Source: a virus (taxonomy: Duplodnaviria > Heunggongvirae > Uroviricota > Caudoviricetes). From it: 64,000 nucleotides of DNA. Of the stretch, positions 5,632 through 51,914 are shown in pieces; positions within the stretch are counted from its first letter, which is position 1; every line of letters begins with the position of its first letter. Made by a program: the position numbers and the translations under genes. The notes under the pieces were generated by a model. The model saw only the letters and a list, made by a program, of their open reading frames with translations. It did no database searches and was not told the origin of the DNA. The stretch is from IMG/VR virus record IMGVR_UViG_2671180724_000008, one strand, 5' to 3'.

Positions 5632-5723
5632 TGTAGAAAAAAATATTTACATCGGTAAAAATAAGTATGTACTTACTTAATGGCGGGCAAGGATAGCCCG
5701 CCAAATCAAGGAGCATATTCAAC

Positions 5724-20348: not shown

Positions 20349-21667
20349 AAAAGTTGATCGCACTTAAGCATAAGCTGGACGAAATGAAAGCTATGGGAAC
20401 CAATGCAAAAAAAGAGGCATTGGCCAACATGGATGACTTCGAGCAAAGCATGGTTTCATTGATGCTCAACCCTTTCATCCGTTTTGGGGTAAAGAAATAC
20501 AAAGTGGCAGAGCCGCTTAGTGAGTCCGTCCCAAGTGACGAAAAAGCCATTGATATACTGAATAAGCTGGCCTCTCGCGAGCTGACGGGGAACGCAGCAA
20601 TAGCTGCTGTTGAGTCTATCGTGGCGTCAATGTGCGCCGATGGGCAGGACGTGTTCCGTCGTTTCCTCTTAAAAGATCCGAAAGCTGGCGTTGGGATTAG
20701 CCTATGCAACAAGGTTTTTGAAAATCCCATTCCGAAATTCGAGGTGCAGCTGGCGTCACCGTATAAAGAAAAAGGCGACAAATACCCCTTCAAGCCAAAT
20801 CCTAAAGCAAAATGGCCGATGATTGGCAGCCTTAAGCTCGATGGTTTGCGAGTAATTTGCGAGGTTATTGTTGACGAGGAAGAGGTGAACTTCCTTTCTC
20901 GTACTGGTAATCCAATCACGTCTCTCGATCACCTAAAGCCAGCCATGCTCGAATTAGGCAAACTTTCAGGCCACAAACACATCTTCTTCGATGGTGAAGG
21001 AACAGCCGGTTCATTTAACAAGTCCGTATCTGCATTGCGCAAAAAGAACGTGCAGGCAATTGGCGCTATTTATCATGTTTTCGACTTCTTCCTACCGGAA
21101 TGGCGGGCACAGGCTAAATCCAAAGAGTATGCAAAGACAGGTATGAAGCTGAAAGAGCGCCTGGCTATTCTCGTGGCGTTGTTCAAAAACGATCGCAGTG
21201 AAGACTACGCGCAAGACATTCACCTACATCCGTTCTACATCATCCATAGCCACGAAGACTTCATCGAACGCTTCATGAAACGCCTGGACGATAACGAAGA
21301 AGGGGAGATGGGCAAAGATCCGAACTCTGTTTACGAGTTTAAACGTACCCGCAGCTGGTGGAAGTTAAAAGACGAAGATTCAGAAGATGGTGAAATTATC
21401 GACTTTGAGCCGGGCGACCCGGACTCTGGTTTTGCCAACACACTTGGAAAAATTGTTATTCGTCTTGAAAACGGCGTCATCGTTCGTGCGAGCGGCATTA
21501 AGCATAAATATCTGGACGAGATCTGGAACAACAAAGAGAAGTACCGTGGTCGTATTGTCGAGGTTCATTGTCACGAGAAAACACCGGACGGCAGCTTACG
21601 CCACCCACGACTGAAATGGCCGCGTTGCTTACGCGATACAGAAGATCGAATCGGAGATAAAGAATGA
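20345..21667 (+). CDS. ATP-dependent DNA ligase
   Basis: 440-aa ORF with nucleotidyltransferase motif I KLDGLR (GSLKLDGLRV). Confidence 0.65.
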   Translation: MKKLIALKHKLDEMKAMGTNAKKEALANMDDFEQSMVSLMLNPFIRFGVKKYKVAEPLSESVPSDEKAIDILNKLASRELTGNAAIAAVESIVASMCADGQDVFRRFLLKDPKAGVGISLCNKVFENPIPKFEVQLASPYKEKGDKYPFKPNPKAKWPMIGSLKLDGLRVICEVIVDEEEVNFLSRTGNPITSLDHLKPAMLELGKLSGHKHIFFDGEGTAGSFNKSVSALRKKNVQAIGAIYHVFDFFLPEWRAQAKSKEYAKTGMKLKERLAILVALFKNDRSEDYAQDIHLHPFYIIHSHEDFIERFMKRLDDNEEGEMGKDPNSVYEFKRTRSWWKLKDEDSEDGEIIDFEPGDPDSGFANTLGKIVIRLENGVIVRASGIKHKYLDEIWNNKEKYRGRIVEVHCHEKTPDGSLRHPRLKWPRCLRDTEDRIGDKE

Positions 21668-21843
21668 TGCTCGGCTGGATGATTGCATTTTTAGCGGTTG
21701 GTTTTTTAATCGGTATTGTGGTGATGTCCAGTTGCATCAATGACTACATTAAAAGCGGTGTTATAGAACGACGCGGTCGTATTTATCGCATTGTAGAAAT
21801 AACCCACACAGTGAAGGAGATTAAGGATGATCGTATTAAGTAA
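21664..21843 (+). CDS. small membrane protein (paralog A)
   Basis: 59-aa ORF, absent from the ORF track (under 60 aa). ATGA overlap with the ligase stop. One TM helix and a conserved C-terminal GRIYRIVEITH motif shared with the ORF at 22039. Confidence 0.35.
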   Translation: MMLGWMIAFLAVGFLIGIVVMSSCINDYIKSGVIERRGRIYRIVEITHTVKEIKDDRIK

Positions 21844-22042
21844 GCGGGAGAAGGAAACGCTTCATGAAATCAGTAAGTGGCCGGAGTTCCCTGAGTACTG
21901 GAAGCCTAAAACGCGGGCTAAGTTAGAGCGGTTAGGGTTGGTTGCAAACGTTTCTGAAACGTGGTGTTCGGCCAACTACCAGTTAACTGATAAAGGGAAA
22001 GTATTGCTACAGCAATTAGTAGAATCAGGAGCGTTCAAATGA
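21827..22042 (+). CDS. hypothetical protein
   Basis: 71-aa ORF overlapping the preceding small ORF. Confidence 0.35.
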   Translation: MIVLSKREKETLHEISKWPEFPEYWKPKTRAKLERLGLVANVSETWCSANYQLTDKGKVLLQQLVESGAFK

Positions 22043-22191
22043 TTCCATACATCTCATTAGCTTTTATGGGTGGCTTCCTTATTGGCTTCGGCATCTGTCG
22101 TGATTTAATTAAGCAGGAACTTAAAACCAAAACACTGTGCATCGGAAAGCGTGTGTATCGGGTAGTTCATGAAACAAAGGTGAAAAAATGA
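22039..22191 (+). CDS. small membrane protein (paralog B)
   Basis: 50-aa ORF, ATGA overlap with the preceding stop. One TM helix and a C-terminal KRVYRVVHETK motif paralogous to the ORF at 21664. Confidence 0.35.
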   Translation: MIPYISLAFMGGFLIGFGICRDLIKQELKTKTLCIGKRVYRVVHETKVKK

Positions 22192-22478
22192 GCAATTTAA
22201 CTTCTTGGGAATGGTGGTTGGCCACCTATTTCTTAGCGGCCGGAGTCGCATTCGCCTTTTACGTAGGTCAGTTAGTCGTAAAACTGTTGCTGATTAAATT
22301 TGCTAGTCATAAACGTATCGATGATGGTCTGTGGCGTCTTGGCACCCTGGTGGAAACTCGCTACGGGCAACTTAAGGAGAACGAAACCATTACTATCCAA
22401 GCGAAACGATTCACTGCCACCATCACAAGAACACCTAGTCGTAGAGTGGCATTGATCAAAAAAGTCACAACCGAATAA
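22188..22478 (+). CDS. hypothetical membrane protein
   Basis: 96-aa ORF with an N-terminal TM helix; ATGA overlap with the preceding ORF. Confidence 0.35.
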   Translation: MSNLTSWEWWLATYFLAAGVAFAFYVGQLVVKLLLIKFASHKRIDDGLWRLGTLVETRYGQLKENETITIQAKRFTATITRTPSRRVALIKKVTTE

Positions 22479-23256
22479 AAACATATTGATAAGTATTTAC
22501 TTACTTATCTTTTGTGTATAAGATGACTTTGTTTTCGTTGAGACGCGACTGTTTGAACTTAAATACAAGTGCAAACGAAGAAGTCTATCTGGCAGTAGCC
22601 TAATAAGCCAAACACCAGCGAGGTCAGTTTCCAGCCTCGTTACCGAAATGGGACACACTGAGCGAGTGTGATTGCAGAACGCAGGAGGGAACATTCATGT
22701 TCCCTCCGATGAAGTAACAGAATGGGCGGTTGGTATATTTTCAACTCCATATGACTCCCGGATTCTTAGCCACTGACCGCCCATCCTGTTACGTCATTTT
22801 GTTCAATTATGTCGTTTATACTGGGTTAAAAAGCGGCGACGTAGCCCGGCTGGTATGGTTAGCCAGCACACAACGTTGAGGCCATTACATTTTTATCAAT
22901 TCTAAGGTTCTATTCACAGAGATACCGGCGAGCGTTGATATGTAACATGTTGGGCAAACATTCAATCGGAGTAGTGGCCTCAACGTTGTGAAGACGGGAT
23001 TGTTGTGTAGGTTTAACCACTGTTGCCATTGGTGCCTGTTTTCACAACAAATGATTCCATACATCACATTGTATAAATTACAAAGTAGGTGCTGTCCTCA
23101 GAAACATCATCTACTTAAAGATTTTGCCTTCTACTATTGAGCGAAGTCGAAAGCGTCTGGCACTAACGAAAAGTGCAAGTAGCGGTGCGTTTCCTGGCAG
23201 AAACTAAACCGTCGCGATTGGCACTGTTGAGTAATAAATACTGGCAGTGCTGAATT

Positions 23257-23331
23257 GATGGTGTAGCTCAGCGGTAGAGCAGTTGGCTGTTAACCAACTG
23301 GTCGGTGGTTCGAATCCACCCACCATCGCCA
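23257..23331 (+). tRNA. tRNA-Asn (anticodon GTT)
   Basis: Canonical cloverleaf read by eye: acceptor gatggtg / caccatc, D-arm gctcagcggtagagc, anticodon loop ctGTTaa, T-arm ggtggttcgaatccacc, encoded CCA. Confidence 0.8.
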
Positions 23332-23336
23332 ATTTA

Positions 23337-23423
23337 GGGGAGTTAGTCCGTAGAGGTAGCGGTGTAGACTGTAAATCTACTGTCATTGCGACTCGGGTGG
23401 TTCGACTCCATCACTCCCCACCA
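23337..23423 (+). tRNA. tRNA-Tyr (anticodon GTA), type II with long variable arm
   Basis: Acceptor ggggagt / actcccc, anticodon stem-loop gtaga-ctGTAaa-tctac, long variable arm, T-loop ttcgact, encoded CCA. Confidence 0.7.
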
Positions 23424-23427
23424 AATT

Positions 23428-23503
23428 GCCGGTTTAGCTCAGTTGGTAGAGCGCCTGCCTTGTAAGCAGGATGTCAGCGGTTCGTGTCCGTTAACCGGCA
23501 CCA
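23428..23503 (+). tRNA. tRNA-Thr (anticodon TGT)
   Basis: Acceptor gccggtt / aaccggc, D-arm gctcagttggtagagc, anticodon loop ctTGTaa, T-loop ttcgtgt, encoded CCA. Confidence 0.75.
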
Positions 23504-24171
23504 ACATAATATTGAGAACATTGGCGTAACGGGGTCATATCCCAATCTATGAATAAATGTTACGTTGCCGCGTGACAACCAGTGTTCTCAACATTGTGGT
23601 GAATGCACAGGCTGATGTGCCGCAACTACAGTAGTGCGCGCTTTGCGGGGCTTGCTACAACCCTGTGTCGGAGATCAGCGCCGACCATCACAATTTGGCT
23701 CTCTTGCAACAGCATAACGCTGAAATATGTCCAACCTGGTGCGGCCTGTTCACCCGCCGTTAGCTCCACGAAACGGAGCGCACAACAGATAAGAGAACTT
23801 CCCATATGGGGCTTGGCTTAAATGCATCGAGTTCTCTTATCGCTGTGTCACAGACAAATTTCCGACAGCCCTGTTTATCATCGGACGCAACCTAAAAGGT
23901 CGAGGCAAAGCCAGGTAATAGCGGAGGGAGTGACACAGCACACAACAGGTAAGAGCATTTGTAGAGTTCGACTCTCTACCGTGGGCTTTTTCCCGCGATG
24001 CGAGCCATAAATGCTCTTTCCGTTGTGGTGGATTCGCAGACTGATGCGATAGCTTTCTTGGATGTTAGGGAAATGCGGCCGCAAATCTTCCCTTTCGCGA
24101 GCGGTGATCGTCCGTAGTCCTAATTGGCTGCACCGTATGCCGGAGATTCAGTACCGGCCACCACAACGGCC

Positions 24172-24258
24172 GGAGAGTAGGGAGCATGGTGCTCAAGCGG
24201 TCTTGAAAACCGTCCCATTGTGCAAACGATGATGGTTCGATTCCATTACTCTCCGCCA
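24172..24258 (+). tRNA. tRNA-Ser-like (anticodon TGA), type II, non-canonical D-arm
   Basis: Acceptor ggagagt / actctcc, anticodon stem-loop gcggt-ctTGAaa-accgt, long variable arm, T-loop ttcgatt, encoded CCA. The D-arm is irregular, so function is uncertain. Confidence 0.5.
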
Positions 24259-24260
24259 GA

Positions 24261-24338
24261 CACAGCGTTGAGCGGTTTGGCCTTTTAATCAACTCGATTA
24301 AGACTCCGCTAACATAAACCAGACCGCTCAACGCTGTG
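24261..24338. repeat. long imperfect inverted repeat immediately after the tRNA cluster
   Basis: 20-bp arms (19/20 match): cacagcgttgagcggtttgg and ccagaccgctcaacgctgtg, separated by a 42-nt loop. Confidence 0.6.
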
Positions 24339-24370
24339 ATAGACAATTACGGCAGACGTTCTTAACCATA

Positions 24371-24400
24371 GCTTGCTAACATCCTAGCAACACTTTTTTT
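24371..24400 (+). terminator. rho-independent terminator after tRNA region
   Basis: ttgcta-acatcc-tagcaa hairpin followed by cacttttttt. Confidence 0.5.
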
Positions 24401-24413
24401 CAGCGCAAAATTC

Positions 24414-24436
24414 AAAGGGGCTTCGGCCCCTTTTTT
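24414..24436. terminator. bidirectional rho-independent terminator
   Basis: aaaggggc-ttcg-gcccctttttt, with an A-run upstream and T-run downstream. Lies just past the 3' end of the minus-strand gene 24454..25788. Confidence 0.75.
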
Positions 24437-24453
24437 GAAAGCAATGGGCAAGT

Positions 24454-25788
24454 TCATGCCAAATTATCCAGATTTCTTTTCTTTTTTTCAATTATATTTC
24501 TCGCGCCAGAAAAAATTTTACTCAAAATAATTGATTTGCTTGCTCTATTATTAAGATGTAACAACGCGCTATAAAATACATAGTTATCTATTTTACTATT
24601 TAAAGTATTCCCAAGCTTCCCGTTATATGTGCTATTAATAGTATTAAAATATACATGTTCAGGACCTATATTACAAATACCCCTATCAACTCGCTTTAAA
24701 TAATGTTTAACTAAAGAAATAGCATCTTCCTTATCATTAATAACATAAAGTCCTGAGCGTTTACCTAGCTTGCTGTCCGAGAATAATTTATAACCAACAA
24801 GTTCATTTAACGTATTATCCACTTTTGTCAACTCTTTGTTGGCAATCTCCAAATAATACTCAATCTCTTTCTCCATATTACTTATTAAAGAGTTAAATTC
24901 TGCTCGTAACAAATCACCACCAGGTGATTTATAACTCCATAAAATTGAATTGGTAATACGTACTACGTCAGATACTTCTGGTTTCTCTGAATAGTTTTTG
25001 TATCTAGTGCAAATAATGCTGTGCTTTATATATTCTCTAACTAATGATCGATAATCCCTTTCGAAAAGGTTTTTGACATCTAGTCTTCCATTGCTTGTTG
25101 TTATTAAGGTGGTGTTTAAAACTGGGTCGCCTTCAAAAAAATTATATTTATTTAGTAATCGTTTTAGCTTGTGTGAATTATGTGATGTTTCGCCATAATA
25201 ATTTATCCCAAAAATAGCAATTATTAGCATAACATCAGGAGTGATGAAATGTCGTAATTGCTCGGCATAAACTTTTTTATCTTCGATTTTCGAAGATGGA
25301 GAGTAAAAACCTTTGTCTATATATTCTAATATTGAAACAATATTACTAACATAACGTATAAAAACTTGATTCATTACAACGGAATCATAAACCTGATGCA
25401 AATAATCTACTCTCAAGTTGTTTTTTATTTTTTCCCCTGTACTAGATGATAACTCTTCTTTTACCTGCCCAAGTAGCTTTTCGTGGTGCTCCAGCAATGT
25501 TTTAAACCATTGTTCAAATGATGATTTTCTTGCCTCAGTTAATGAATCTGATGTTATCTGGACAGCTTTCATAGCTGCTTTCGCACTTTTCTTTGCTTCA
25601 TAAGCGTTCCATGCTGAAGCACAAAAAGCTGCCGCCGTGATGCAACTGGTAAAAATAGAAATCCTATCTGCAACATTCAAGCTCCAGAACCAATCAGACG
25701 ATGAAATCAAAACCACAGATATTACGGGAACAATGAAAATCAAAACAGGCATGTATGTACTCGCTCTAATAGTTATTAGTCGAGGCAA
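24454..25788 (-). CDS. low-GC membrane protein of unknown function (candidate accessory / defence or exclusion gene)
   Basis: 444-aa minus-strand ORF in a markedly AT-rich segment. Two predicted N-terminal TM helices, then a largely helical soluble region with no nucleotide-binding or nuclease motif recognisable by eye. Own terminator at 24414..24436. Confidence 0.5.
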   Translation of the reverse strand: MPRLITIRASTYMPVLIFIVPVISVVLISSSDWFWSLNVADRISIFTSCITAAAFCASAWNAYEAKKSAKAAMKAVQITSDSLTEARKSSFEQWFKTLLEHHEKLLGQVKEELSSSTGEKIKNNLRVDYLHQVYDSVVMNQVFIRYVSNIVSILEYIDKGFYSPSSKIEDKKVYAEQLRHFITPDVMLIIAIFGINYYGETSHNSHKLKRLLNKYNFFEGDPVLNTTLITTSNGRLDVKNLFERDYRSLVREYIKHSIICTRYKNYSEKPEVSDVVRITNSILWSYKSPGGDLLRAEFNSLISNMEKEIEYYLEIANKELTKVDNTLNELVGYKLFSDSKLGKRSGLYVINDKEDAISLVKHYLKRVDRGICNIGPEHVYFNTINSTYNGKLGNTLNSKIDNYVFYSALLHLNNRASKSIILSKIFSGARNIIEKKKRNLDNLA

Positions 25789-25848
25789 ATATTATATAAA
25801 TCTCGTTATGATTTACAGACATGTATACGTATTGCTAATTATCACCAA

Positions 25849-25880
25849 CAAATGATAGGTGTGTACATATCTATCATTTG
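25849..25880. promoter_or_regulatory. palindromic operator-like site in a divergent intergenic region
   Basis: Perfect 10-bp inverted repeat caaatgatag ... ctatcatttg with a 12-nt spacer, between the minus-strand membrane-protein gene and the glutaredoxin gene. Confidence 0.45.
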
Positions 25881-25930
25881 TTGTAAAATTAATGTATACG
25901 CTATGAATACACTAATAATATGAGGTAATC

Positions 25931-26176
25931 ATGACTATCGTTATCTACGGACGAGATAACTGTTCATACTGCAAACGTGCGGTCGAGCTGGCGAAGCAAC
26001 TAAAGGGACATGGCTACGGTGATTATGAGTACATCGACATCACTACTACCGGTATCGATAAGGAAAAACTTAGCGAAATTGTTGGTAAACCGGTAGAGAC
26101 TATACCCCAGGTACTGATCGATGGCCAGCCGATTGGCGGATACACAGAACTGGCTGCATACGTCAGCACCCTCTGA
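25931..26176 (+). CDS. glutaredoxin (NrdH/Grx-like thiol-disulfide redoxin)
   Basis: 81-aa protein with active-site CSYC near the N-terminus and the TIPQVLIDGQPIGG motif. Confidence 0.7.
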   Translation: MTIVIYGRDNCSYCKRAVELAKQLKGHGYGDYEYIDITTTGIDKEKLSEIVGKPVETIPQVLIDGQPIGGYTELAAYVSTL

Positions 26177-26180
26177 TTTT

Positions 26181-26206
26181 AACGGCTCACAGGAGCCGTT
26201 TTTATT
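26181..26206 (+). terminator. rho-independent terminator
   Basis: aacggctc-acag-gagccgtt hairpin followed by tttatt. Confidence 0.7.
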
Positions 26207-26386
26207 CCCACCAAACTCACTCCCGTTTCCCTTAAAATTCAAAAAACAACGTCAAAATGATTCCATACCTACTATGTATGGAATCATTCGTGAAAATGAG
26301 TTACTTTTACTCTTGATCCTATAAGAATCTATGCCTAATATACTGTTTACTTATACAGTGAATCGGCGTAACTCGGTGATTGTCAT

Positions 26387-27490
26387 ATGAAAAATAGCTT
26401 TGACAGAGCACGCGCTGCGGAGAACACCTCAAAAGAGGCGATTGAGTATCTCGAAAGAGCATCTCAAATGCAGGCCGTTATGATCTCGCAGGTTAGCAAT
26501 GACATGAGATTCTCGGACGCATTCATGTTATTCACTCGCTTATCTCTGCTTATAACCAGACGTCGGCCAGAGATCGCTGTTCATTGTATTTTGATACATG
26601 TTTTGCCGCACATTGCTGATGTAAAAGTAAGTGACATTAATAGGTTCATGGTGAACCAACTGGTAAACCCACTAATACTGGATGGCAAAATTGTTATGGG
26701 CCGCCGCGTTTTCTCTCTGATGAAGCAGTTCCTTAGCTGGTGCGCCTTCCAGGGGATGATAGACGTGTCACCGTTAAACGATATGTCACTAAACAAAGTT
26801 GCCGGTGGCGCAAAGCCCACACCTCGCGAGCGGAAGCTGACCGACGCAGAGGTATGGGTGTTCTGGAATATATGGGACTACTTCAATGTGTGCGCTGGTA
26901 CAAAATGGGCGGCCAGGCTGTGTCTTGTATCAGCAAGACGACCTGACGAAGTACTGCGGGCTAAAAAAAGTGAGTTCAATCTTAAGCGTGGGGTTTGGAA
27001 TCAAGGCAAGAGAAACAAGTCAGCACGTGAGCATTCGCTGCCTTTAAGCACATTAATGCGCACATGCATTGAAGAGTTGTTCGAATACGGTAAAGACAGC
27101 CAGTGGCTCGTGCCTTCGAATAAAAAAATCGGGAAAGACCTTCCTATGTCTAAAGTGGCAATAGCCCAGGCATTACGTCGTATTCTGGAACGACCAGAAC
27201 TGATGGAGCTTGAGCCATTTACACCCCGAGATTTGCGCCGTACTGCGCGTAGTTACTTCCCAGCATTAGGCATAAGCCAGGAGGTATCACGCAAAATCAT
27301 GAACCACAGTCTTGAGGGGATAGATCGGGTCTACGACCGGCACGATTATATGGACGAGATGCGAGACGCCTTAGAAAGTTTCTCGACGTACATCGCATCA
27401 ATCGTAGAGCAACCGGATTTAGACGAAATTGACCACAAATTCAAGGGAGATCGTCTATCAACAGAGCTTATTCGTGTAAATTTTTCATAG
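26387..27490 (+). CDS. tyrosine-type site-specific recombinase (integrase / resolvase family)
   Basis: 367-aa ORF. C-terminal catalytic region carries R..DLRRTARS ... HS ... YDRHDY, consistent with the R-H-R-Y tyrosine recombinase signature. Confidence 0.7.
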   Translation: MKNSFDRARAAENTSKEAIEYLERASQMQAVMISQVSNDMRFSDAFMLFTRLSLLITRRRPEIAVHCILIHVLPHIADVKVSDINRFMVNQLVNPLILDGKIVMGRRVFSLMKQFLSWCAFQGMIDVSPLNDMSLNKVAGGAKPTPRERKLTDAEVWVFWNIWDYFNVCAGTKWAARLCLVSARRPDEVLRAKKSEFNLKRGVWNQGKRNKSAREHSLPLSTLMRTCIEELFEYGKDSQWLVPSNKKIGKDLPMSKVAIAQALRRILERPELMELEPFTPRDLRRTARSYFPALGISQEVSRKIMNHSLEGIDRVYDRHDYMDEMRDALESFSTYIASIVEQPDLDEIDHKFKGDRLSTELIRVNFS

Positions 27491-27871
27491 AGACTTTATG
27501 GCCTCAACAACCTTTTGTGATGCGCCTTTCTCTTTACCGAATCGCTCGTTATATGCAGCAAGAACCTGTTTTTCGTCCTCGTTAAGAGGAGCGGTGCCTT
27601 CTTTGTATAAAAATGCTGCGAGTTCAGGTTGGCGTTCTTCCAGCACCATCATCATAAGACGACTTGGCTCAATACCCAGCGCCAGCGCCAGCGGACGAAC
27701 CTTATCGATAGGCAAAGGAATTTTGCCACTTTTAATTAAAGAAAGGTTGTTGGCATTTTTATAACCAATAAGTCTGGCTATTTGGGCCTGACTCATAGGT
27801 GAGGATTCAATCAGCCCTGCGATAAAAGCAGCATAGCGACTTTCTATAAATTCAATCTTGTTGTCAGACAT
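27485..27871 (-). CDS. XRE-family helix-turn-helix transcriptional regulator (repressor-like)
   Basis: 128-aa minus-strand ORF with HTH segment SQAQIARLIGYKNANNLSLIKSG. Convergent with the recombinase gene and divergent from the operon beginning at 28123. Confidence 0.6.
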   Translation of the reverse strand: MSDNKIEFIESRYAAFIAGLIESSPMSQAQIARLIGYKNANNLSLIKSGKIPLPIDKVRPLALALGIEPSRLMMMVLEERQPELAAFLYKEGTAPLNEDEKQVLAAYNERFGKEKGASQKVVEAIKSL

Positions 27872-28122
27872 TGTTACAACCTTTGCGCGTTTAATTCTCT
27901 CTGGTAAGTGCTTACCGATATTACATCAAAGGTTAGGGTTGTAAAGCTATTATCATTTTTTTCGGCAGGCACTTGTAAGACCGAGCAAAGGTCCATGCAT
28001 GGAGAAAAACTAGCCCAAAATAGGTAAGAAAATTAACTTGCATCTGATATAGATGTATTCAGTATTGATACAAATTTTAGTAGTATTCCTTACCATAGTA
28101 TAAGTTAGAATGGATTGATTGA

Positions 28123-28335
28123 ATGAAAACCACTATTTCCAGCCTAATCGCTCTTGAGATCGGACACGTACAGAAATTAGCTGATGAGTGTGTAGCTGAC
28201 ATCCTCACCGATCTACCGAATGAGCAGATTCAGGTTGGTGTGAATGACACAACTGGCTTTATATTCGAACTTAACAACAAACGCTTCACGCTTCTCAATA
28301 CCGGCTCCGGGTCTTTAGCCGTCAGAATCTGTTAA
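28123..28335 (+). CDS. hypothetical protein
   Basis: 70-aa ORF, first gene divergent from the HTH regulator. Confidence 0.3.
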   Translation: MKTTISSLIALEIGHVQKLADECVADILTDLPNEQIQVGVNDTTGFIFELNNKRFTLLNTGSGSLAVRIC

Positions 28336-28433
28336 CCCCTCTTCTCCCTGCGCGAATGGCTTAGTTCCCTGTTCGCGCAGTGCTACATTAAACACACTAG
28401 TAAATAATTTGTTTTCATAACAAAGGATTAGCC

Positions 28434-30542
28434 ATGTCTAAAAAACGTTCCATCAAAGAGGTTCAGGACTTCCGTGACAGTGTAAAACGAGTAGTCGCTC
28501 TCCTTTCAGGTAAAAACATCCCTGTTGCAGAACGAGGGGACGACGCTTATGTACGCTATAACGATGATGGAGAGCCAATTCTCGTAAACATCCCATCAAT
28601 CCCGGATAACGCAACACCGGCATTGATGAATGCTGTGCGCGGATTTCTCGATCATGAGGTTGCTCACATTTTGTTTACCGATATTCGTGTGTCCAACAAA
28701 ATGAGAGAAAAAGGACGCGTTCCTTCCTGGTCGCTATGGAATGCCTTAGAAGACGTGTTCATCGAGCGAAAAATGGGGCAGGTCTTTAACGGAACAAGAC
28801 GTAATCTGATGGCAACTCAGCGCCTTATAATCGAAAAAGTCTTTAAACCAAAGGCTTCAGAGGCTATTGCTTATTGTGGCAAAGATCAGCGCGCGCTTTT
28901 TCTAAACTTCTTTCTCTGTCCGGTTGTAAGAGCCTGGGATGGCCAAGCACCGTTCGTAGATTTCATGGATGAATACTGGCCTGTCATTGAGAAACCAATT
29001 TCATTATTAAAAGAACATGGTATCGATGTGGCCGTGCGTAACATGTCTTGCACCGAGGATTGTGTAAAGGTGGCTGCGACCATAGCTAAGATCCTCAAAG
29101 ACACTGAAAGTGAAAGCAAAGGTAAGGAGTCAGCTCCGGGAAAAACTTCCGATCCTTCAGACGCTGACCAGACGGATGCCTCTGGAGAAAACAATGAAGA
29201 CAACGAAGATCATGAGACACCCTCAGCGTTAGATAATCACAAATCTATCGAATCAGAATCACACAGTAAGCACAAACATGATAATAACGACAGTGATGAT
29301 TCAGATAATTCTGAATCATCAGAAACAATATTCGATGATACAGAAAATGATAAAGAGGTATCAGATTCTGATGCTTCTGATAACGCGGCGTCAGAATCAT
29401 TAACCGCTGGCCACGAAAAAAGAAAAACGACAGAAGACGGCTCTTCAGATATTCCAACTCCGTCAAAAATGAGTCTGGAAGAGGCTTTAGAGGAGCTGGA
29501 TAGCATAGAAGATGAAGTCGGAGGCATGACAGAAGATGCTCTATCCGAAACGATTAAAAGCGAGTTAACAGAAAGCTCGAAAAGCGAATACAGGCCATAC
29601 AATCGCTCATACGACTTCATCGGCTCGATTGATCAGGCAGAAGCCCATATCAAACGGCTTATTAAAACATTCTCCGATATTGATTTAGGAGGATATCCAA
29701 TCAGCCGCTATCGCATCGTTCCTGAAGGCAACCAGCTCTTCGACAAATATATTGAAAAGCATCTTTCGTCAGGTGTTTCGTCGACGCTGGCAAAAGACCT
29801 GGAGCGAGCAATAGCAAGCAGAAACAGAGTTCAGTTTATACCGGGCCAGCGTCGGGGGCGCATTCATGGTTCTAGTATCTACAGATTAGCAATGAATGAT
29901 GATCGCGTGTTTCGTAAAAAAGAAGAATCTAAAGCCGTTAACGCCTGTGTTCAACAAGTGATTGATTTATCAGGTTCAATGAGTGGCGAAACGATAAAAC
30001 TAGCTCTTGCAAGTGCATATACCATCGCCGATGCTCTTGATCGAATAAATGTTCCCAACATTATCACCGGCTTCACTACATTTGGCAGTCATCTGGCAGC
30101 GATAGAACTTAAGGCTATCAAGTATGAGTTCTCTCGCTTTGAATCTTTAATGCTACCTATCATCAAAAATTGGAATGAAAAAGCAAATTCTCGCGAAGTT
30201 CGCTCACGTATGGGGTGCGTAGGCTACACATTCCCACTTCTTAATAACGTGGATGGTGAAAGCATAGCCAGCCTTGCATCGTTATTTTCCGGTCGCATGG
30301 AGGACAGGAAGATCATGCTTGTTCTGAGCGATGGCGAGCCGCTGGCTGTTGGGAGAGGTTTTGACGCTCATTTGCGTTCGGTTGCGAAGCAAATTGAAAC
30401 GCAGACTGACATTGATTTGATGGCAATTGGCATCATGACTGACGCACCGGAGAGATTTTACGCAAATCATGCCCTGGTAACGAGCGTTGATAGTCTTGGT
30501 TCATCTGTAGTTACTGAACTATCTCGTATCATTTTGAAGTGA
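28434..30542 (+). CDS. CobT-like von Willebrand factor A domain protein with acidic disordered linker
   Basis: 702-aa ORF. C-terminal VWA domain with MIDAS DLSGSMSG, central Asp/Glu/Ser-rich low-complexity region, and an N-terminal HEVAH (HExxH) motif. Confidence 0.6.
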   Translation: MSKKRSIKEVQDFRDSVKRVVALLSGKNIPVAERGDDAYVRYNDDGEPILVNIPSIPDNATPALMNAVRGFLDHEVAHILFTDIRVSNKMREKGRVPSWSLWNALEDVFIERKMGQVFNGTRRNLMATQRLIIEKVFKPKASEAIAYCGKDQRALFLNFFLCPVVRAWDGQAPFVDFMDEYWPVIEKPISLLKEHGIDVAVRNMSCTEDCVKVAATIAKILKDTESESKGKESAPGKTSDPSDADQTDASGENNEDNEDHETPSALDNHKSIESESHSKHKHDNNDSDDSDNSESSETIFDDTENDKEVSDSDASDNAASESLTAGHEKRKTTEDGSSDIPTPSKMSLEEALEELDSIEDEVGGMTEDALSETIKSELTESSKSEYRPYNRSYDFIGSIDQAEAHIKRLIKTFSDIDLGGYPISRYRIVPEGNQLFDKYIEKHLSSGVSSTLAKDLERAIASRNRVQFIPGQRRGRIHGSSIYRLAMNDDRVFRKKEESKAVNACVQQVIDLSGSMSGETIKLALASAYTIADALDRINVPNIITGFTTFGSHLAAIELKAIKYEFSRFESLMLPIIKNWNEKANSREVRSRMGCVGYTFPLLNNVDGESIASLASLFSGRMEDRKIMLVLSDGEPLAVGRGFDAHLRSVAKQIETQTDIDLMAIGIMTDAPERFYANHALVTSVDSLGSSVVTELSRIILK

Positions 30543-32079: not shown

Positions 32080-35000
32080 CTTCTCACTTGGGGAGTCGGC
32101 TTTAAAAGCGGAAAACGCGGTGAAGATTGCCAGAGAAGCTGGCTACACCGCTGTAATTTCAGCAGATAGCATGAATATTGCGAGTGTTATTCCACTACAA
32201 CGTGCCGCTGGTGACGACATGGCGGTTATTTGTGGTGTGAAACTAAATATCGTTGATGATCCCACATACGAGTACCGGGCTAAACTTGCTAAAGAGTCTA
32301 AGGGATGTATGGAATCATTAGAGCGAGGACGTAACTACTCGTTTACCGCTCTAATTAAAAATGAGCAAGGATATCGCGACATCTGCGAACTAATGACGGT
32401 GGCCAACACACGAGAACAGTTCTACTTTGTACCGCGTCTCTCGCTCGAACAGTTGGTTTCTACATATGCCAAAGGCAACATCATCCTGCTCACTTCCGAC
32501 ATCGGTAGCGTGTTCCAACGCAACGATTTTGCAAAAATCATAAGCACACTGATTACAGCGGGTGGAAAAGACAACTTCTATAGTGTGGTTTATCCGCACC
32601 CTACCCCATTCTACGACCAGATTAACGTCCGGGCGATGAAAGTCGCCAGCGCATTGAAAATAGAGCCAGTGGCGTTCTATCCCGCTTATTACGAATCGAT
32701 CGACGATGCAGACATTAAAGACATTGCGCACATGGTTACGAACAACATCAAAATCGACCAGCCGCATCGTCTGCGTATCCCCCACCAGCGAGATAACGCC
32801 GTCAATGGTCGCCGCCATCTCCTTGAGGCTCTTAAAGCCTTCTCCGTTCGCATGGATGTGCCGGTAACAGCTGCAATGGCCTCAACAACGCAGGATACCA
32901 TTATCGATGCCTGCACATGGCGCTGGCATGAATTGCCGCCAGCACTGCCAAAGATGGCAGACGACGAGCCTGCAACGCTTATGAAACTGGCTGTTGCAGG
33001 GCTGCGTAAACGTCTTACCACAAAAGAGTTTGGCTACACACCACCTGCTTCTGAGAACAGGGTTTATGTTGAGCGGCTAAAGTACGAAATGGACACGCTG
33101 ACTCGCCTGGGATTTTGTGGTTACTTCCTGATGGTACGCGATCTGATGAATCACAGCCGTGAAACTGGCATTCCTGTCGGGCCTGGTCGTGGTTCCTCCG
33201 CTGGATCTCTGGTGGCATGGTGCATAGGCATAACCAACGTCGACCCAATCCGTCACGGTCTTCTGTTTGAACGTTTCATCAACCCTGAGCGTCTCGACTT
33301 GCCGGATGCGGATTTGGACTTCAGCCAGGCACGTCGCCATGAAGTGATCGAGTATTTGAATGAACGCTACGGCGAAGATTACGTTGCGGGTATTCCGAAC
33401 TTCACATATCTGGGCGCAGCCTCTGCACTACGTGACACCGCTCGTATTTATGGTGTGGAGTCCGCAGATATGGCGGTATCAAAAGAACTGAAGAACGTCG
33501 AGGATGATAGCCTTCCATTGGAAGAACTGCGCGAACAACTGGCAAGTCTCGACAAATACGCAACAAAATATCCTGATGCATTCAATGCAGCCTGCAAGTT
33601 ACAAAGCCTTATGCGTGGCTTTGGTAGACATGCGGCAGGGATGATCGTAGCAGGTGTTCCTCTGACAGAACGTACACCGGTTGAGCGCCGTGGTGACGCG
33701 CGTTGTATCGCATTTGACAAGCGTTACTGCGAGGCTATGGGCCTAATTAAGCTGGACGTGCTTGGCCTGGCAACTCTCGATTTGCTCGATAGTGCAAAAC
33801 GCTACATAAAAGAGAACACAGGTGAAGATATCAATCTTGATGCCATTTCTCTTGAGGATCGCAAGGTGCTGGATGGTTTTGCTGCTGGGTACACTCAAGG
33901 TGTTTTCCAGCTTGAATCAGGCCCAATGCGCAAGCTGCTTAAAGATTTAGGTGGTGGAATTGAGCCAATGAGCTTTAAAACGGTTGTTGCTACGACTGCG
34001 CTCTTCCGGCCGGGGCCAATTCAGTCAGGCATGTTGGATGATTATGTTTCTGTCGCCAAAGGCTTTATGACGCCGGAATCATTACACCCCGTTCTTGATG
34101 AACTTACCGCAGAAACAAATGGCGTGATTCTCTATCAGGAACAGACGATGAACGCGACTCGATTGCTTGCTGGCTTCACAATGGCTGAAGCTGACGGTGT
34201 TCGTAAAGCGATCGGCAAAAAAGACATGGAAAAAATGAAGAGCATGGGCGAGAAGTTCATCGTTCAGGCTCAAGCTGGCTGGATAGACGTTGAGCTGGAA
34301 GATGGCACTACACAGCGCATTCACCGTGCGGAACATTTTAAATGCGAAGACGGAACTCTGAAAACTGTCGAAGAGGCACTTGAGTACGGCGCAAAACTAC
34401 CTATAAACGCAGTACGCGTTACAGCGTCACATCCAGGGCTATCAGAGATGAAAGCGAAGGAGATCTGGACCGCATTCGAAAAGAATGGTGCCTACCAGTT
34501 CAACAAATCACACTCTGTTGCTTACTCCTTAATCAGTTATCAATCTATGTGGTTGAAAACTCATTATCCCGCAGAGTTTTTCGCTGCTGCTCTCACTATT
34601 CTTGGCGAAGATAAACACCAGGGGCTGGTTAAAGATGCGCTGACCTATGGTATTCGCGTATTGCCACCAGACGTTAACGTGTCATCTAACCGAATCGAGA
34701 TCCGCACGCTTGAAGATGGCAGCCAGGTGCTGTATGCGCCCTTCTCTGCTGTGAAAGGTTGTTCTGAGAATGGCTGCCAGGCCATCATGAGAGCGCGAGA
34801 AAAAGTTGGCGGCAAATTCGAGTCACTGGCGCAATTCGAAGAAGCTGTCGAGAAACGTGCCTGTAATAGTCGAGTGCGCGAATCACTGCAAAAAGTAGGG
34901 GCGTTTGCATCCATCGAGCCAGGTAGTCTGCCAGCAACTGATCCAGAGCGTCTCCGCGACCAAGCTGAATTGATGGGAAACCTTGTCATAGACGCAGTTA

Positions 35001-51880: not shown

Positions 51881-51914
51881 TTTCATTGATAGGTAAGTGC
51901 TTATCTATTAACAT

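Follow-up and report, generated by a model that had tools for sequence, protein, structure and literature searches.

A recombinase and a repressor-like gene that abut tail to tail in a 64,000-nt stretch of DNA (the window) from the Caudoviricetes virus record IMGVR_UViG_2671180724_000008 probably form a plasmid-state, or lysogeny, module, in which an autoregulated repressor is paired with an SOS-boosted, Cre/Xer-like recombinase that does not integrate. The recombinase, Int, is a tyrosine recombinase of 367 aa (26387–27490, + strand), and the candidate maintenance repressor is a helix-turn-helix (HTH) protein of the XRE fold, of 128 aa (27485–27871, − strand); both open reading frames (ORFs) are present as a preceding sequence-only reading had described them. 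The window belongs to the SSU5 supergroup of phage-plasmids, in which it is of the E. coli pSLy3/Cyrano type, and it shares 95–99% identity with Cyrano, CMS-2020a, and many E. coli plasmids of 105–115 kb. Region 25800–29000 matches 655 PLSDB plasmids, the best of which (99.3%) is the 109-kb E. coli plasmid pEC00678_4, and matches the phages Cyrano, CMS-2020a, and PhiR41_1 at 95–98%. The gene order is common to the window and to the Klebsiella, Citrobacter, Yersinia, and SSU5 lineages. Cyrano (pLF82) has been shown experimentally to be a phage-plasmid that is maintained at 5.5 copies per cell, forms siphovirus particles, and is induced by genotoxic stress (PMC9928086), and SSU5-like elements are inducible by mitomycin C or ciprofloxacin (PMC9600943, PMC9928086).

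Int is composed of core-binding and catalytic domains and has no arm-binding domain. The protein matches PF00589 (Phage_integrase) with 39.9 bits (cut-off 27.1), and a profile of 22 Int homologues aligns to lambda Int (1z1b) with E = 7e-12, in an alignment that begins at lambda residue 45 and pairs the Int and lambda Int residues R185/R212, K211/K235, R284/R311, H307/H333, and Y316/Y342. All 22 homologues have R185, R284, and Y316, and at least 90% have K211 and H307. The arm-binding domain PF13356, absent from Int, is present only in distant P4-like relatives (at most 34% identity, 400–460 aa). Profiles were needed to obtain PDB matches for Int and for the HTH protein, as phmmer searches of the PDB with single sequences returned none for Int at E = 10 and none for the HTH protein at E = 1. 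The Int profile matches lambda Int, XerC/D, XerA, XerH, and the Int of Tn1549, and Cre is not among the 21 PDB sequences matched at E ≤ 0.01. The analogy to Cre of P1 that had been drawn for this recombinase therefore holds in function and fails as a family assignment, with no kinship detectable beyond the superfamily.

The candidate core recombination site is a 12-7-12 inverted repeat, ATGATTCCATAC-CTACTAT-GTATGGAATCAT, located at 26257–26287, 100 bp upstream of the int start codon. This repeat, which the sequence-only reading had missed, occurs once in the window, where none is expected by chance. A comparison of 10 loci (Escherichia, Kluyvera, Yersinia, Buttiauxella, and Klebsiella) and of 101 IMG/VR contigs shows invariant arms around a 7-bp spacer that differs between them, with the spacers CTACTAT (36), CTATTAA (25), TTGGTAG (20), TTGTAAG (8), and others. 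The arms are unchanged beside the Nissabacter homologue, which shares 60% identity with Int. Beside the Int homologues of Providencia (44% identity; ATGACTCCAGAC-TACATAG-GTCTGGAGTCAT), Xenorhabdus (47% identity; TGACTCCAGAC-TTAGTTA-GTCTGGAGTC), and Pantoea allii (ATTGTGACTCCAGAC-TTAATAG-GTCTGGAGTCACAAT), the arms co-vary symmetrically with the protein, and the spacer is always 7 bp. The Pantoea allii site adjoins int on a 437-kb contig on which no HTH, CobT, or other phage gene lies nearby; the site thus follows int rather than the phage genes, and it is intact beside int in every locus read, Pantoea included. Because the arms co-vary symmetrically, the spacer has a fixed length of 7 bp and free sequence, and the site travels with int, the comparison of sequences lets us take the repeat with high confidence as the cognate site of Int. 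Its anatomy is that of a simple tyrosine-recombinase core site like lox, FRT, and dif. We infer that recombination takes place here: one Int monomer would occupy each of the two invariant arms, and strand exchange would take place across the spacer.

Other properties of the site and its surroundings were noted. The spacers of some lineages are exact reverse complements of each other (CTATTAA in locus L003 and TTAATAG in loci L006 and L126), and the asymmetric core has therefore flipped at least once between perfectly symmetric arms, possibly by template switching at the palindrome or by recombination. A semi-conserved A-rich element of the AGATTTCAAAAAA type lies ∼12 nt to the left of the site (26226–26244 in the window), has an equivalent in ∼100 loci, and is kept even where the DNA farther left is unrelated; it may assist the Int site as an accessory or DNA-bending element. 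Integron-like cassette capture at the site was considered and rejected because the cargo junctions, at which unrelated left flanks begin, lie ∼30 bp outside the site, past the A-rich element, and not in the spacer. The palindrome was likewise rejected as an intrinsic terminator, as no T-run follows the stem on the + strand and the T-run on the − strand is several nt off the stem in Cyrano.

The distribution of the element bears on whether Int could instead be a classical integrase, for which the palindrome would serve as an attP core for chromosomal entry in some hosts. Of 5,426 complete E. coli genomes, 252 have the int–HTH region, at 254 places that are all on plasmids; no chromosomal copy was found in these genomes, and thus no integrated copy flanked by attL and attR. 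The majority of Int relatives reside on contigs of ∼100–120 kb. An integrase would agree with the annotation "site-specific integrase" that is used throughout, with the P4/CP4-57-type integrases among the distant relatives, and with the placement of some relatives on contigs of 0.4–0.9 Mb. It is at odds with the 0 of 254 E. coli places that are chromosomal, the intact site next to int in all loci read, the missing arm-binding domain, the lack of any excisionase gene noticed beside int, and the perfectly symmetric 12-bp arms, which are lox/dif-like and unlike attP cores, such that we regard it as highly improbable. Since the element is found on plasmids only, Int has no arm-binding domain, and a lox/dif-like 12-7-12 site lies beside the gene, a Cre-like role is likelier than chromosomal integration, as the sequence-only reading had suspected, and the module is not an integration module. 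Int would act on plasmid copies, resolving dimers and possibly circularizing incoming DNA, with no chromosomal target.

The promoter of int can be read from the sequence as a putative −35 hexamer, TTGATC (26313–26318), a 17-nt spacer, and a −10 hexamer, TAATAT (26336–26341), on the + strand. With 8 of 12 matches, it falls under the threshold of the promoter scan; it is conserved in all Enterobacteriaceae-type lineages. A LexA (SOS) box, TACTGTTTACTTATACAGTG, at 26341–26360 shares the last base of the −10 hexamer; no other sequence in the window matches TACTGT-N8-ACAGT. A position weight matrix made from E. coli LexA boxes, which themselves score between 13.3 and 27.2, gives it 22.5 bits, and the next best site in the window scores 13.7. 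The CTG-N10-CAG frame is retained in 92 of 93 oriented IMG/VR loci, with a varying center, and the Citrobacter lineage has a CTGG/CCAG variant. Because the box covers the int promoter, Int would normally be low and would rise after DNA damage, at a time when dimers arise by RecA-driven recombination and the phage is induced. RNA of the Cyrano int gene stands at ∼5 times the local background in lysogeny broth and rises from log2 5.6 to 10.3 (∼25-fold) in macrophages (PMC9928086 supplement), a rise that gives indirect support for SOS control of int by LexA. No LexA box is present at the rightward promoter described below; a CTG-N13-CAG sequence there is wrongly spaced and unconserved. The only other perfect LexA box of the 109-kb plasmid pEC00678_4 (locus L012) precedes a umuD-like S24 peptidase gene (record 78936–79360).

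The HTH protein belongs to phrog_8 ("transcriptional regulator") and contains no Peptidase_S24 domain in searches of Pfam and NCBIfam. Its AlphaFold2 model, with a predicted local distance difference test (pLDDT) score of 75, adopts the five-helix HTH fold and is similar in Foldseek to C.BclI, C.AhdI, SinR, and the N-terminal domain of P22 c2, with target-normalized TM-scores of 0.72–0.80 and E-values of only ∼5e-3. Profile relatives of the protein exceed the Pfam thresholds of HTH_3 and HTH_37. The stretch containing the recognition helix, GYKNxNNLSLIKSGKIPLP, is near-invariant, while the identity of the Klebsiella protein as a whole falls to 57%. In Cyrano, which is 98% identical, the homologue is named "putative repressor" and is expressed ∼10-fold over background in the plasmid state (PMC9928086); the authors of that study list it as a putative master repressor (PMC9928086), and it is the sole DNA-binding regulator among the Cyrano genes expressed in that state.

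The promoter of the HTH gene consists of a −35 hexamer, TTTACA (27945–27940), a 16-nt spacer, and a −10 hexamer, TAATAT (27923–27918), on the − strand. It is the only match of the promoter scan in 26100–28500, and both hexamers are conserved across lineages. Starting two bases past the −10 hexamer, with its center at approximately +1.5, is a perfect 14-bp palindrome, GGTAAGTGCTTACC (27903–27916, zero mismatches), which is the candidate operator. The block comprising promoter and palindrome is conserved in 94 loci, in which the palindrome occurs as GGTAAGTGCTTACC (47), with a terminal ..CTTACT (28), or as GGTAAGTACTTACC (17). The repressor would be made from this sigma-70 promoter (27945–27918), and a repressor dimer would bind the palindrome at its own transcription start, thereby limiting its own synthesis.

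The palindrome accounts for part of what had been reported for the intergenic gap of 251 bp at 27872–28122. The inverted half-sites described there are real, with GGTAAG at 27903 and 28023 and CTTACC at 27911 and 28089, which amounts to 4 occurrences compared with 0.12 expected from the hexamer frequency in the window (Poisson P = 8e-6). Beyond the palindrome, an isolated left half-site, ATAGGTAAG (28020–28028), is found in the window, Cyrano, and pEC00678_4 only, and an isolated right half-site, CTTACCATAG (28089–28098), is specific to the E. coli lineage. The promoter-like hexamers also described there do not exceed chance as a class (1 site in 26100–28500 compared with 4.2 in shuffles), but the one site, the leftward HTH promoter, is conserved. 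The gap had been interpreted as the maintenance (lysogeny-like) switch of the element. The repressor role finds support; the conserved palindrome, however, lies at the promoter of the HTH gene itself and not at the rightward promoter. Control is probably not exerted through a local two-promoter switch; the palindrome is one member of a family that counts at least 15 sites across the window.

Extended to 18 bp, TA(A/G)GTAAGTACTTAC(C/T)TA, this family has at least 14 other members in the window, almost all of them intergenic. The best example, TAGGTAAGTGCTTATCTA (51890–51907), is upstream of nrdA, and the other members start at 5662, 10446, 15534, 19845, 22490, 25856, 36144, 39658, 43699, 47206, 56606, 61441, and 63654. 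Ten sites with at most three mismatches are present in the window compared with 0.1 in shuffles (∼100-fold enrichment), and 24 of 26 sites with at most five mismatches fall outside ORFs of 90 aa or longer. Enrichment of the family extends to the Klebsiella, Citrobacter, Yersinia, Buttiauxella, and SSU5 loci. With respect to the best promoter-like hexamers, the sites are positioned either in the spacer, where the center is at approximately −20 and the flank forms a −10 hexamer TATCAT, or at approximately +1.5. One repressor may thus hold down many early, replication, and nucleotide-metabolism units through dispersed palindromes, as the repressors of P1 (C1) and L5 do. A copy of the family, TAGATAAGGACTTACCTA, is observed inside the CobT-like gene of other loci (L004 at 6971, L006 at 6966, L014 at 11852 as the reverse complement, L021 at 11663, and L020 at 13934) and is not in the window.

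The reach of the HTH protein could also be shorter. In an alternative that we consider unlikely, though it deserves a hearing, the protein is only a local autoregulator (of itself, int, or the small rightward gene orf70), like a restriction-modification controller or an antitoxin; the 18-bp palindromes would then be bound by another factor, and the true master repressor would be encoded elsewhere on the element. Controller (C) proteins and HigA-type antitoxins are indeed the best structural matches, CT..GA flanks the palindrome of the HTH promoter compared with TA..TA in the dispersed family, and the plasmid annotation includes other regulators. Opposing this alternative, the two kinds of palindrome agree in all 12 specified core bases, Cyrano in the plasmid state expresses no other regulator, and loss of the module accompanies a virulent lifestyle in SSU5. 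Phage SSU5, which is described as virulent (PMC5427195), carries a deletion of ∼8 kb from just past tRNA-Asn to just before CobT, with the result that the cargo genes, int, the HTH gene, the control region, and orf70 are gone. As SSU5 has lost the int–HTH–orf70 segment, the module is dispensable for lytic growth. Its loss coincides with a non-temperate lifestyle, which suggests that this "virulent" type phage is a deletion mutant of the int–HTH–orf70 module.

The favored reading, of a plasmid-state module, places the repressor and recombinase units tail to tail. The overlap of the HTH and recombinase genes pointed out in the sequence-only reading does exist, as 6 nt are shared, but it amounts to two abutting stop codons (TCA|TAG, 27485–27490) with no further coding overlap. 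This arrangement opens another possibility, namely that SOS-triggered convergent transcription is itself the induction switch: LexA cleavage would open the int promoter, RNA polymerase, meeting no terminator between the genes, would continue antisense into the repressor gene, repressor synthesis would be lowered by collision or antisense RNA, the phage would be derepressed, and the Int protein would be a passenger or helper. As the repressor has no S24 cleavage domain, an SOS signal must reach it indirectly. The tail-to-tail junction is unstructured (z = −0.03), the scan shows no strong terminator, and the abutting arrangement is found in every lineage, including Providencia and Xenorhabdus. 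In Cyrano after 6 h in macrophages, RNA of int and orf46 exceeds HTH RNA, which dips slightly, in data for which the read strand is not established. Yet distant lineages retain the arrangement without a LexA box, a weak terminator-like site is present at 27711–27727, and other routes remain, such as an antirepressor. On balance, a switch of this kind seems unlikely, if by no means fanciful.

The arm sequence of the Int site also occurs singly. The exact 16-mer AATGATTCCATACATC has three more copies in the window besides the Int site, in addition to a degenerate fourth copy inside int. The copy at 22038–22053 (+ strand) covers the start codon and first five codons of a small hydrophobic ORF (∼50 aa in Cyrano) and its position is shared by the Cyrano, Klebsiella, Citrobacter, and SSU5 lineages. 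The copy at 23050–23065 (+ strand) lies in a conserved noncoding stretch ∼200 bp upstream of tRNA-Asn. The third copy, at 32304–32319 (− strand), is inside the gene for the DNA polymerase III alpha subunit (PolIII-alpha; pol), at codons 84–89 (CMESL), and in three lineages 16 of its 16 nt are invariant, synonymous positions included, while the flanks drift. The degenerate copy inside int (26993–27004, − strand) has two mismatches in the window and one in other lineages. The positions of the single copies are conserved in the Klebsiella, Citrobacter, and SSU5 lineages, and no single copies were found within 10 kb in distant lineages with changed arms. The copies that lie left of the Int site all read on the + strand and those that lie right of it all on the − strand, and the sense copies that upstream transcripts carry are accordingly complementary to the int and pol mRNAs.

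The single copies could possibly be extra Int-binding sites, as for TnpI and Rci, or participate in RNA–RNA pairing. Carried further, the palindrome and the single copies would be regulatory rather than sites of crossover, bound by Int or by an RNA carrying the 16-nt sequence and directed at int, the polymerase gene, the small membrane ORF, and the tRNA leader. The conserved positions in three lineages, with 15–16 nt invariant even within coding sequence, and the complementarity to the int and pol mRNAs fit such a role, and TnpI of Tn4430/Tn5401 is a tyrosine recombinase that uses extra motif copies for control. It fits poorly with distant lineages that have the palindrome without single copies, with the varying distance between palindrome and promoter, and with the absence of covariation past the core between the putative RNA partners, and we judge it improbable. 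A search for covariation between the flanks of the arm copies gave nothing consistent. Two further roles for the motif were rejected: as a genome-wide asymmetric operator, like that of P1 C1, it has only 5 copies on the 109-kb plasmid, all within 10 kb of int, and as a promoter it offers no acceptable hexamers by eye. An Rfam search of 21500–29000 returned only tRNAs at or near threshold, with tmRNA-like matches below threshold. Conserved noncoding DNA at 22479–22654 and 22900–23256, with blocks that include CAGTGGCCTCAACGTTGTG and CGTCTGGCACTAACGTAAAGTGCAAGTAGCGG, precedes the tRNA cluster (Asn, Tyr, Thr, Ser; 23257–24258); the only Rfam matches there are the tmRNA-like ones below threshold, and an unannotated structured RNA ahead of the cluster is possible.

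Several observations weigh against a module of autoregulated repressor and SOS-boosted, nonintegrating recombinase. The Nissabacter, Providencia, Xenorhabdus, and Pantoea loci lack the LexA box, a LexA-repressed resolvase would be unusual, and the single arm copies inside pol and int do not fit a simple resolution model. His-II of Int is replaced, with Arg281 (FTPRDLRRT) at the position of lambda H308; this position is substituted in some active tyrosine recombinases, and Arg281 is thus no bar to activity. The HTH protein itself reaches only sub-threshold matches to Pfam HTH_19 and HTH_37 (18.9 bits for HTH_19; cut-off 30.2). Its link to the dispersed palindromes comes solely from the copy at its own promoter, such that another regulator could bind them, and the rightward promoter has no full palindrome in most lineages. 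Three index blocks place the proteins of the module on contigs of 0.2–1 Mb, where the neighborhood within 10 kb is equal to that on the plasmid. Literature searches gave no binding or recombination data for any member of the family, and searches on the motif, the SSU5 or pSLy3 repressor, and the pHCM2 integrase returned nothing specific; the protein–DNA contacts, the recombination reaction, and the regulation proposed here are all inferred.

Across the control region, a conserved block at 28040–28088 (+ strand) likely contains the rightward promoter, as judged from an alignment of nine loci and without a match in the promoter scan; an extended −10 hexamer is TGATACAAT in relatives and TGATACAAA (28066–28074) in the window. 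The block precedes orf70, a 70-aa ORF in the "cro position" (28123–28335, + strand; phrog_2627) that is syntenic in all lineages, Providencia and Xenorhabdus included, and whose model (pLDDT 68) has no meaningful fold match. A hairpin at 28348–28380 (+ strand; CTGCGCGAA...TTCGCGCAG), a terminator or attenuator before CobT, follows orf70. Its stem is kept despite sequence change, and in Providencia and Xenorhabdus a U-run follows, as in a textbook terminator. RNA of the Cyrano orf70 homologue rises ∼90-fold in macrophages to log2 10.8, whereas that of CobT stays at 5.9 (PMC9928086 supplement), a drop of ∼30-fold before CobT in the induced state (PMC9928086). The genes downstream on the + strand are as described previously (CobT-like, CobS/AAA_5, PolIII-alpha, single-stranded DNA-binding protein-like, and exonuclease genes, with a RecA-like gene next in the annotation of a near-identical plasmid), but the conserved hairpin and the RNA drop before CobT speak against the single long replication operon from 28123 that had been proposed. 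Given the hairpin and the high orf70 and low CobT RNA in Cyrano, the rightward promoter would mainly serve orf70, and the genes from CobT to the polymerase receive at best read-through or have their own control. The CobT ribosome-binding site is closely preceded by a conserved small inverted repeat, AAAACAAATTGTTTT in most lineages and TAATTTGTTTTCATAACAAAGG in the window (28395–28430; L003 6035–6065), through which CobT might be controlled separately. In Xenorhabdus (L128 14481–16802), the CobS/AAA_5 protein has 773 aa and a LAGLIDADG_3 domain, which suggests an intein or homing-endonuclease insertion.

On the other side of the module, a hot spot for cargo genes lies between the tRNA/glutaredoxin genes and the Int site (24259–26256 in the window; 4260–5134 in L001, 720–2500 in L010, and 6884–9666 in L128). 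The cargo in the window is an AbiC-like 444-aa ORF with a weak putAbiC match, and that in Cyrano is CYRAN_43, the most highly expressed Cyrano gene at 723-fold over background. Other plasmids carry a YafO toxin and colicin-immunity gene, Ail/Lom, fimbrial usher genes, or a colicin DNase with ParE/Phd. In addition, host-like metG and apbC genes are found on pEC00678_4 (locus L012).

The LexA box, the terminator-free tail-to-tail arrangement, and the single arm copies are new details, and they can be combined into one circuit. LexA release would fire int head-on into the gene of a non-cleaving repressor, and Int or an arm RNA would engage the single copies, coupling recombination, replication, and immunity. 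In this full form the proposal is a long shot, although the circuit would, if true, differ from those of lambda, P1, and N15. SSU5-like phage-plasmids are found in ∼1 in 20 complete E. coli genomes (252 of 5,426) and also in Klebsiella, Enterobacter, Salmonella, and Yersinia (pMT1), and some bear resistance genes (PMC9600943). No characterization of their lysogeny control or recombinase was found in the searchable literature. The present analysis provides a probable operator and regulon, the repressor promoter, a lox-like site and the recombinase that goes with it, and a LexA box. The box could explain induction by DNA-damaging antibiotics, and the lox-like site and recombinase could become an orthogonal recombination tool.

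Among known systems, the recombinase unit resembles Cre/loxP of P1 as a plasmid-prophage tyrosine recombinase without arm-type sites whose gene lies beside a site with symmetric arms and an asymmetric spacer. The arms are 13 bp in loxP and 12 bp here, the spacer 8 and 7 bp, respectively, and dimer resolution or circularization, the presumed role of Cre/loxP (PMC7969092), is likewise presumed here. Unlike Cre/loxP, the present system has a LexA box on the int promoter and extra single arms kilobases away, and the proteins share no kinship past the superfamily. With XerCD/dif-cer and plasmid multimer resolution, it shares a short inverted repeat, a 6–8-bp spacer, and a would-be function of converting dimers to monomers, and the Int module likewise occurs on large non-phage replicons (Pantoea). 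Here, however, a single element-encoded recombinase and identical arms are observed, and no accessory sequences were identified. Similar to integron IntI, int has a LexA box over its promoter, a site just upstream, and variable cargo beyond the site, but there are no attC-like repeats, and the cargo junctions lie ∼30 bp outside the site. Rci/sfx, with one conserved arm, and TnpI/IRS of Tn4430, with the extra motif copies DR1/DR2, are possible models for the single arm copies; the extra sites of Rci and TnpI lie within ∼100 bp to 2 kb and have shown roles, whereas the copies here are 0.7–6 kb away, two lie within genes, and neither inversion nor deletion variants were seen.

The repressor unit, as proposed, is most reminiscent of P1 C1 and the L5 gp71 "stoperators", in which one immunity repressor acts at many scattered intergenic operators, some of them over promoters. 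C1 is unrelated to the small XRE-type HTH protein described here, and the C1 and gp71 sites are asymmetric, whereas the sites here are palindromic. Finally, the convergent-promoter switches of coliphages 186 and P2 also set lysogenic transcription face to face with lytic or SOS-controlled transcription; unlike in these phages, it is whole genes that converge here, at their 3′ ends, and interference between them is hypothetical.

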